Below the pieces are notes generated by a model, which did no database searches, was not told the origin of the DNA, and was given only the letters and a program-made list of their open reading frames with translations. 64,000 nt of DNA from Eledone cirrhosa (taxonomy: Eukaryota), in NCBI GenBank assembly GCA_964016885.1, contig CAXHJY010001188.1, positions 1-64,000 of the forward strand. The letters run 5' to 3'. The position numbers and the translations under genes are program-made. Shown in pieces: positions 27,936 to 28,395 of the stretch. Numbering within the stretch: position 1 is the stretch's first letter; each line of letters starts with the position of its first letter.

Positions 27936-28067
27936 ATACTTCCAATGTCCAGGCCATGGTTATATATATATATATATATATACCATGGTTTTATATATAT
28001 ATATATATATCTGTATGTGGCTGATGGCTGAGAGAAAAGAGTACTCAATATTTCTTTTTAGTACTGT

Positions 28068-28178
28068 TAAATAATGAGTCTTGCTGCTAGTGGGTTTCAC
28101 CTCTTTATTACAGGGTCATCAGTCTGATGACCCTGTGATATGGAGGCGAAACTCCAGAGTAACAGGACTCACTATTTA
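28068..28178. mobile_element. Family C back-to-back inverted pair of hammerhead-like cores (centre 28123)
   Basis: acagggtcatcag-t-ctgatgaccctgt. Right arm reads CUGAUGA-C-CCU..AGG-C-GAA-ACUC(ca)GAGU-A. Confidence 0.6.
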
Positions 28179-28270
28179 GCCTTAATAAAATTAATATATA
28201 TTTAATATATATTTATATATACAAATATGTTGTGCGCTAAGCAGCCACAGTATATGATAAATATATATAT

Positions 28271-28395
28271 TTCCTGATGATTTCTCTCGAATGAAACAAT
28301 TCTAGTCCTGTAGAAGCCATTTCTATAGTCAATATTTATGTTCTACTATGTATTGAGCACCTTACTTACTGTGGTTACCTCCGATTGAACCCGGG
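28271..28395 (+). mobile_element. Family B hammerhead-like short element (other copies 30583-30710 on -, 34819-34890 on +)
   Basis: CTGATGA-T-TTC(tctc)GAA-T-GAAAC-aatTC-tagtcctgtagaa ... tattgagcaccttacttactgtggttacctccgatt. Confidence 0.55.

Follow-up and report, generated by a model that had tools for sequence, protein, structure and literature searches.

The window analyzed here, the whole stretch of 64,000 nt of Eledone cirrhosa DNA, comes from a microsatellite-rich contig of a genome of 3.0 Gb, and the output of a repeat finder run on it was dominated by (TA)n. Four exact copies of the 10-nt motif TATTGAG(T/C)AC are present in insertions of three families, B, C, and E (Table 1). A first-pass annotation of this DNA had noted the motif in these families, correctly except for the position of the family E copy, which it had given as 35071. 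Counted on the sequence, the motif starts 43, 53, 53, and 59 nt 3′ of GAAAC. The first-pass annotation had given about 45 to 60 nt. In the family C copy of the window, a deletion between two short direct repeats (28051 to 28075, minus strand) has taken the 5′ strand of a hairpin, which explains the 43-nt spacing; in intact family C copies, the motif is located about 61 nt from GAAAC.

Table 1. Hammerhead-linked insertions and motif copies in the 64-kb window. H1, first hairpin (see text).
Feature	Position	Strand	Compared with
Long arm of family C with tail; its hammerhead core at 28095-28122	28010..28122	-	Intact copies L010, L021
Motif as remnant 3′ strand of hairpin H1, family C	28041..28050	-	
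Short arm of family C (hammerhead core 28124-28151), placed head-to-head to the long arm	28124..28196	+	
Family B 5′-truncated copy with tail: type I hammerhead with its core at 28274-28296 and a cut predicted after 28312	28270..28401	+	
Family B hairpin H1, containing motif 28351-28360	28340..28358	+	
Family B copy with tail, truncation within core; H1 at 30626-30644	30581..30708	-	
Motif, exact copy in family B	30624..30633	-	
Family B short arm: hammerhead, without tail, without motif	34820..34893	+	
Fold-back insertion of family E, consisting of a short arm in inverted orientation (34950-34992) and a long arm (34993-35138)	34950..35138	+	
Family E hairpin H1, containing motif 35081-35090	35065..35088	+	
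Old E-related copy (family F): motif variant 35661-35670, 5′ strand decayed	35596..35735	+	ORF-linked relative L175
E-related fold-back copy, motif variant 35801-35810	35755..35895	-	
Motif with 1 mismatch in another family E fold-back copy	11842..11851	-	

Hammerhead-like cores were enriched in the window, with 12 cores compared to 0.4 in shuffles. In a structure-checked scan, the hammerheads of families B, C, and E were of type I, with the core, stems I to III, and an NUH site, and self-cleavage is predicted for them. The copies with the motif at 35081 and 30624 are 5′ truncated and do not possess the first half of the core; the long arm of the family E copy is truncated within stem II. In complete copies of family E, the core is of the U3-A8 kind, and CUGANGA was not seen in this family for that reason. 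U3-A8 in place of C3-G8 was also observed at L166:1377-1460 (plus strand), L148, L223, and L091 to L118, with position 7 varying as expected; such cores occur in family E, other Hydra families, and one non-Hydra family. Stem II of family B has U-U at its base. This replacement of the closing pair, found at 28274 to 28296, in the family of L204:2387, and in some others, is constant among copies. The best 150 of 632 matches of an Rfam scan did not include a hammerhead and were all miRNA or viral models on microsatellite.

Additional features of the window include an inverted pair of family D with a long arm (60240 to 60440, minus strand) and a short arm (60722 to 60830, plus strand), and hammerhead copies of family A at 8033 to 8180 (plus strand) and 45817 to 45956 (minus strand). 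Every full-length copy of family A examined stops at one point, with no tail and no long arm. Another hammerhead, with a long stem II, at approximately 37700 to 37860 (minus strand) was overlooked by the short-gap scan; its family carries the hairpin described below in L078 and L236. Positions 6784 to 7146 (minus strand) are presumably a fragment of a LINE-type reverse transcriptase (RT) frame, and positions 28520 to 28700, which recur at many loci, resemble what we take to be a tRNA-derived SINE-like repeat. An inverted pair of TTCGAGTAC (7889 to 7897 and 8261 to 8269) had been listed as related to the motif, under 7838/8244. It is not linked to a hammerhead and was located beside none of 16 other listed family A copies, and the single other copy of its repeat among the loci examined has different motif letters. 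The pair was rejected as a relative of the motif and assigned to a separate dispersed repeat with this 9-mer at 7836 to 7913 (minus strand) and 8235 to 8330 (plus strand) of the window and at L130:351-428.

By itself, the 10-mer showed no enrichment in the window: with up to 1 mismatch, it had 10 matches, compared to 15.5 in shuffles. Hammerhead core, GAAAC, and motif at 40 to 70 nt, when combined into one pattern, matched the genome at 10,162 sites (5,039 + 5,123), and the reversed pattern at none (0 + 0); among the first 100 matches listed, family B predominated and family C was represented by few. The motif is enriched because it is linked to the hammerhead, not as a 10-mer by itself, and this link is real. 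Genome-wide enrichment at a fixed distance had been named as a check by the first-pass annotation, which was also right that the intervening sequences do not align: in six comparisons, alignments between flanks from the three families were no better than those of shuffles (z from −0.6 to 0.4). With alignments at shuffle level, the reading of B, C, and E as a single DNA family that has diverged but can still be aligned was rejected.

Families B, C, and E occur as head-to-head or single arms within (TA)n, and their insertions combine one short arm with another arm that has an extra 65 to 80 nt bearing the motif. This matches the anatomy of EN+ Penelope-like elements (PLEs) with their tandem or inverted pseudo-LTRs (pLTRs), 5′ truncation, and a “tail” confined to one arm. 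A pseudo-LTR with a one-sided tail is described for PLEs in PMC8557442 and PMC3846280. The best explanation for the pieces in the window is that they are 5′-truncated, often inverted insertions of Hydra-type PLEs.

Family B continues into its own open frame of 758 codons and family E into its own intact ORF of about 710 codons, each a single ORF with an RT (YRDD in B) followed by a C-terminal GIY-YIG endonuclease. The Pfam match to GIY-YIG at residues 643 to 666 was weak and below the cut-off (E value, 0.019). Family E forms tandem arrays with a unit of about 3.54 kb and is young; arrays with intact ORFs were seen at L234 and L235 (C1, approximately 91.48 and 437.20 Mb). The proteins of B and E are 52% identical, and the 11 sampled ORFs share 42 to 85% identity with each other. 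DKT instead of DKG was found in 10 of the 11 ORFs, RWR or RWK in all 11 (RLRWR in family E), a CxCX5C linker in B, B2, E, f3b, and f1b, and CxH in six full-length ORFs. Read by eye, CxxC is present and CCHH absent in B and E, and both families have a hammerhead near the 3′ end and insertions in (TA)n. By these marks of the predicted proteins and copies, on which the clade assignment is based while an ORF tree comprised host-genome ORFs only, B and E are new members of the Hydra clade of PLEs. An intact coding parent for each of them rules out that B and E are non-autonomous, retrozyme- or SINE-like elements. Family C carries a hammerhead, a tail, and the hairpin, and its copies extend upstream by about 400 nt of UTR. 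No linked ORF was found for it in 18 loci and 30 long copies, and this family may be mobilized in trans. A near-copy of the motif without an evident 5′ strand was observed about 160 nt beyond the stop codon that closes the ORF of family B at L123:4794-4803 (minus strand) and also in L121, L122, and L128.

What is conserved is a bulged hairpin, of which the motif makes up the 3′ strand. In each family, the motif pairs with an upstream RCUC, and the order is RCUC, an upper stem of 2 to 5 bp, a loop of 2 to 60 nt, a 3′ bulge of 2 nt with U first, and GAGY, with a lower stem of 4 bp. In the family B copy following the predicted cut site at 28312, the lower stem has 4 bp, the upper stem 3 bp, and the 3′ bulge 2 nt; the outer pair is G-C but A-U in most family B copies. 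The stretch from hammerhead to start codon is untranslated, and the hairpin is positioned within it, usually as a pair, H1 and H2, with H1 110 to 185 nt and H2 45 to 90 nt upstream of the ORF anchor in many families. In the families of B and E, whose parents are autonomous, the hairpin is likewise positioned upstream of the ORF; the first-pass annotation had named the presence of the motif in autonomous PLEs as a check.

A sample free of the motif was obtained by searching the genome for a codon pattern of the beginning of the ORF, which gave 734 matches, and its control none. An exact 11-mer upstream of the ORF was found only in family B in this sample. The hairpin, scored with a descriptor derived partly from the same windows, was present in 60 of 96 genome windows upstream of the ORF start (shuffles, 1.5; maximum, 7), compared to 1 of 93 ORF windows and 5 of 96 reverse complements as controls. 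After 23 windows fetched through the motif had been dropped, it was still present in 40 of 73. For a test on metagenome sequences, the descriptor was fixed beforehand. In the best 80 of 197 relatives, which were 33 to 46% identical to B, the hairpin was found in 25 of 36 upstream windows (shuffles, 0.48; maximum, 3) or 20 of 25 distinct N-termini, and in 33 of 51 windows following the hammerhead (shuffles, 0.21), and the exact 11-mer was found at 7 of the 80 loci. There was no hairpin match in 36 of the 96 genome windows and 11 of the 36 metagenome windows; truncation or decay of copies would explain some of these. In the metagenome loci L327 to L341 and L370, an extra short stem with a GAGU-like strand last is located between the cut site and H1.

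When pairing was not required, the first upper pair was paired in 24 of 27 clusters (11 U-A and 13 C-G) and the second in 21 with six pair types (10.4 with shuffled partners); the third, with 14 compared to 10.2, did not clearly exceed chance. The outer pair was G-C in 18 clusters, A-U in 7, and G-U and A-C in 1 each. Counts of 5 G-U and 6 A-C did not distinguish the strand. RNAalifold recovered the same fold from 20 alignment rows, and 13 cells had changes on both sides (3.0 in shuffles, and far fewer with slid partners), in rows that were chosen for pairing and mutually related, with one being misaligned. These both-sided changes may be taken as support for the pairs, not as proof. Single hairpins of six window copies were no more stable than shuffles (z from +0.1 to −1.4), so that a protein would be needed, and the minimum-energy fold was the proposed hairpin in full for one of the six.

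Six published Hydra consensi (PMC8557442 and its supplement, two of them available in part) were inspected by eye, and three have a clear hairpin. It is present with the exact 11-mer in the coral consensus Hydra-2_Amil, twice in Hydra-1_Ajap and once in Hydra-2_Ajap from sea cucumber, and with one mismatch in a copepod consensus; it is weak in Hydra-1_Amil and was not seen in Hydra-1_Obim. None of 13 stretches downstream of hammerheads of non-Hydra elements contained it, a small control with 12 stretches from one family, taken from a Pfam GIY-YIG search that yielded mostly elements with CxxC before the domain. The distribution is best read as a hairpin probably inherited from the common ancestor of the clade.

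Genomic copies end 2 to 6 nt 5′ of H1 or H2. An end was mapped as the passage into microsatellite up to 25 nt ahead of the hairpin, with TA microhomology blurring the junction by 1 to 4 nt. Family E copies end at −5 from H1 in 34 of 38 cases and at −3 from H2 in 57 of 64, family C copies at −4 or −5 from H1 in 12 of 18, and family B copies at −5 from H1 in 7 of 14. The family C short arm in the window stops in (TA)n about 4 nt ahead of the expected start of H1. Family f7 ends at −3 from H2 (12 of 15) and, as judged visually, 2 nt ahead of an H1 with a long loop (16 of 18), family f1b at −4 and −3 (4 of 4 each), and family f8 at −5 (3 of 3). The smaller families, eight with 1 to 5 copies each, end 3 to 6 nt ahead of the hairpin, and 11 of 13 distinct same-family ends in metagenome contigs, again by eye, are 1 to 6 nt 5′ of it. 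Ends at H1 of family B are more dispersed (−12, −8, −5, and +1). The long-arm end of this family has no canonical H2 behind it; 11 of its 26 later ends are at one base and 10 others 3 to 4 nt earlier. Family D has an RCUC 4 nt past the short-arm end in a deviant stem with no matching 3′ strand. An RCUC 4 to 5 nt past a fixed end, followed by a different stem with no GAGY, was also observed at the 3′ UTR ends of L091, L094, L096, and L118 and at L050:1876-2030 (plus strand). In these non-Hydra or unassigned families, the RCUC may belong to a related signal of a different clade.

Positional and covariation evidence from families that are related, and in this respect not mutually independent, points to a likely role of the hairpin in recruiting the RT. 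It probably binds the RT-endonuclease of the element and makes reverse transcription begin a few nucleotides away on its 5′ side. A common cis signal for RT recognition or priming, as suggested by the first-pass annotation, fits the evidence and is its best reading, but the conserved unit is the hairpin and the 10-mer only one of its strands. On the sense RNA, the element protein would bind the hairpin by recognizing its invariant lower stem and its bulge, and would nick (TA)n DNA, and the A/U-rich bases just upstream of the hairpin would serve in priming cDNA. The bound hairpin itself would stay uncopied. A start ahead of H1 would yield the short arm and one ahead of H2 the long arm, and the stretch from H1 to H2, which includes H1 and with it the motif, would be the optional “tail.” Two hairpins would thus mean two starts, and hence the Penelope tail. 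For PAc, a Poseidon element, PMC11167929 reports two internal RT starts on sense RNA, which match genomic ends and bound the tail.

Other explanations of the fixed ends need to be considered. The hairpin may direct a cut of the RNA by a host nuclease or the element protein, or the end of the transcript, just 5′ of itself, and RT would then proceed from an ordinary RNA 3′ end. The same fixed ends are predicted in this case, and PAc RNA-seq reads are reported to end at both start sites, but in vitro the reaction started internally on longer, unprocessed PAc RNA (both PMC11167929). A cut between hammerhead and start codon should, moreover, split every message of a tandem unit, and cutting of the RNA appears unlikely. 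It is quite unlikely that the hairpin acts as DNA, in a cruciform or single strand cut beside the hairpin by the GIY-YIG endonuclease during resolution of the insertion or when existing copies are targeted. Bulged stems of 4 + 2 bp with loops of up to 60 nt should hardly extrude from duplex DNA, and the tail ends of PAc coincide with RT starts (PMC11167929). The same paper, however, cites a report that the D. virilis Penelope endonuclease depends on the tail for recognition, PMC8557442 attributes the tail to endonuclease-mediated resolution, and the G-U counts leave the strand unsettled. Highly unlikely is an antisense RNA template on which the hairpin is a stop, like the boundary in telomerase RNA, with RT halting before H1 or reading through to H2. 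An antisense self-primed template has been proposed for EN+ PLEs (PMC3846280), and the geometry of the ends fits equally well; the working PAc template in vitro, on the other hand, was sense RNA (PMC11167929), and the fixed ends meet the (TA)n targets with microhomology, as priming ends would.

The first-pass annotation had assumed diverse non-autonomous ribozyme elements using one shared Penelope-type enzyme. That unrelated elements of this kind converged on or captured one signal is very improbable, even though the flanks of B, C, and E cannot be aligned, family C was without an ORF in its 18 + 30 loci, and a common signal could permit mobilization in trans. B and E possess intact ORFs of their own, which refutes the assumption for these two families and leaves it to family C, and the 11 related ORFs belong to families with the hairpin at the same place. 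A role in coding, or as a signal for translation or splicing, has a next to negligible probability as the reason why the motif is conserved. The open frame of B and E does reach back across the motif, and H2 is located 10 to 60 nt ahead of the start codon in many families, but the motif precedes the first ATG, stops interrupt that frame in many copies and families, loop length changes freely while pairs covary, and the copy ends would be left unexplained.

The Penelope RT is a sister of telomerase. If the hairpin sets the start of RT, a wider reading may be possible, albeit tentatively: Hydra-type Penelope elements would choose their template in a telomerase-like manner by a portable hairpin of about 20 nt, with an internal start a few bases upstream and the hairpin uncopied; its duplication would lead to two starts and the tail, and RNA placed 5′ of the hairpin would be writable into (TA)n by the enzymes of the whole clade. 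How PLEs choose their start and why some copies carry the “tail” has been open for two decades. Kept across animal phyla and found at a constant distance behind each of the two ends, a hairpin of about 20 nt offers experiments a well-defined target, and families B and E supply young, intact elements for these. If true, this would give genome annotation a rule for where such elements begin and end, and template choice by telomerase could be compared with it.

The tail, the hammerhead, and internal starts are already known. Neither the hairpin nor the rule that copies end a few bases 5′ of it was found in full-text searches of open literature, in agreement with the first-pass annotation, which knew of no description of the motif, or by term in the accessible parts of PMC8557442, PMC3846280, PMC4209133, and PMC10085705. 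The running text of PMC8557442, as distinct from its figures and part of its supplement, has no match for “stem-loop” or “hairpin,” and the available text of PMC4209133 none for “hairpin,” “downstream,” or “Hydra.” The elements described here resemble the Hydra clade EN+ PLEs of PMC8557442 in DKT, RW[K/R], CxCX5C, and the endonuclease CxxC and CxH, as well as in the hammerhead near the 3′ end, the (TA)n targets, inverted 5′-truncated copies, and the one-sided tail. They differ in that the tails are about 65 to 80 nt long compared to 30 to 40 nt there, and family E in its U3-A8 core, long stem II, and 3.5-kb unit. Their hammerheads are minimal type I ribozymes like those of PLEs in PMC4209133, some with a palindromic stem III that would need a dimer (family C).

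PAc from Anolis, the subject of the only in vitro study, likewise has two internal RT starts downstream of the hammerhead that bound the tail, but it belongs to another clade (Poseidon), and its starts are inside the ORF, in an “AC-rich stem loop” (PMC11167929). The paper presumes a motif for protein binding close by, on the 3′ side of the starts, and identifies the two starts but not a conserved signal for them. In the families described here, the starts would be located in the untranslated region, with one hairpin behind each end. Small RNA structures that are bound by an RT and fix the start or end of copying include the 3′ stem-loops of stringent LINEs and SINEs, the R2 3′ UTR, the template-flanking elements of telomerase, and epsilon of hepadnaviruses. 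LINE and R2 signals sit 5′ of the start and are copied, whereas the hairpin described here would be 3′ of the start and omitted from the copy that it directs.
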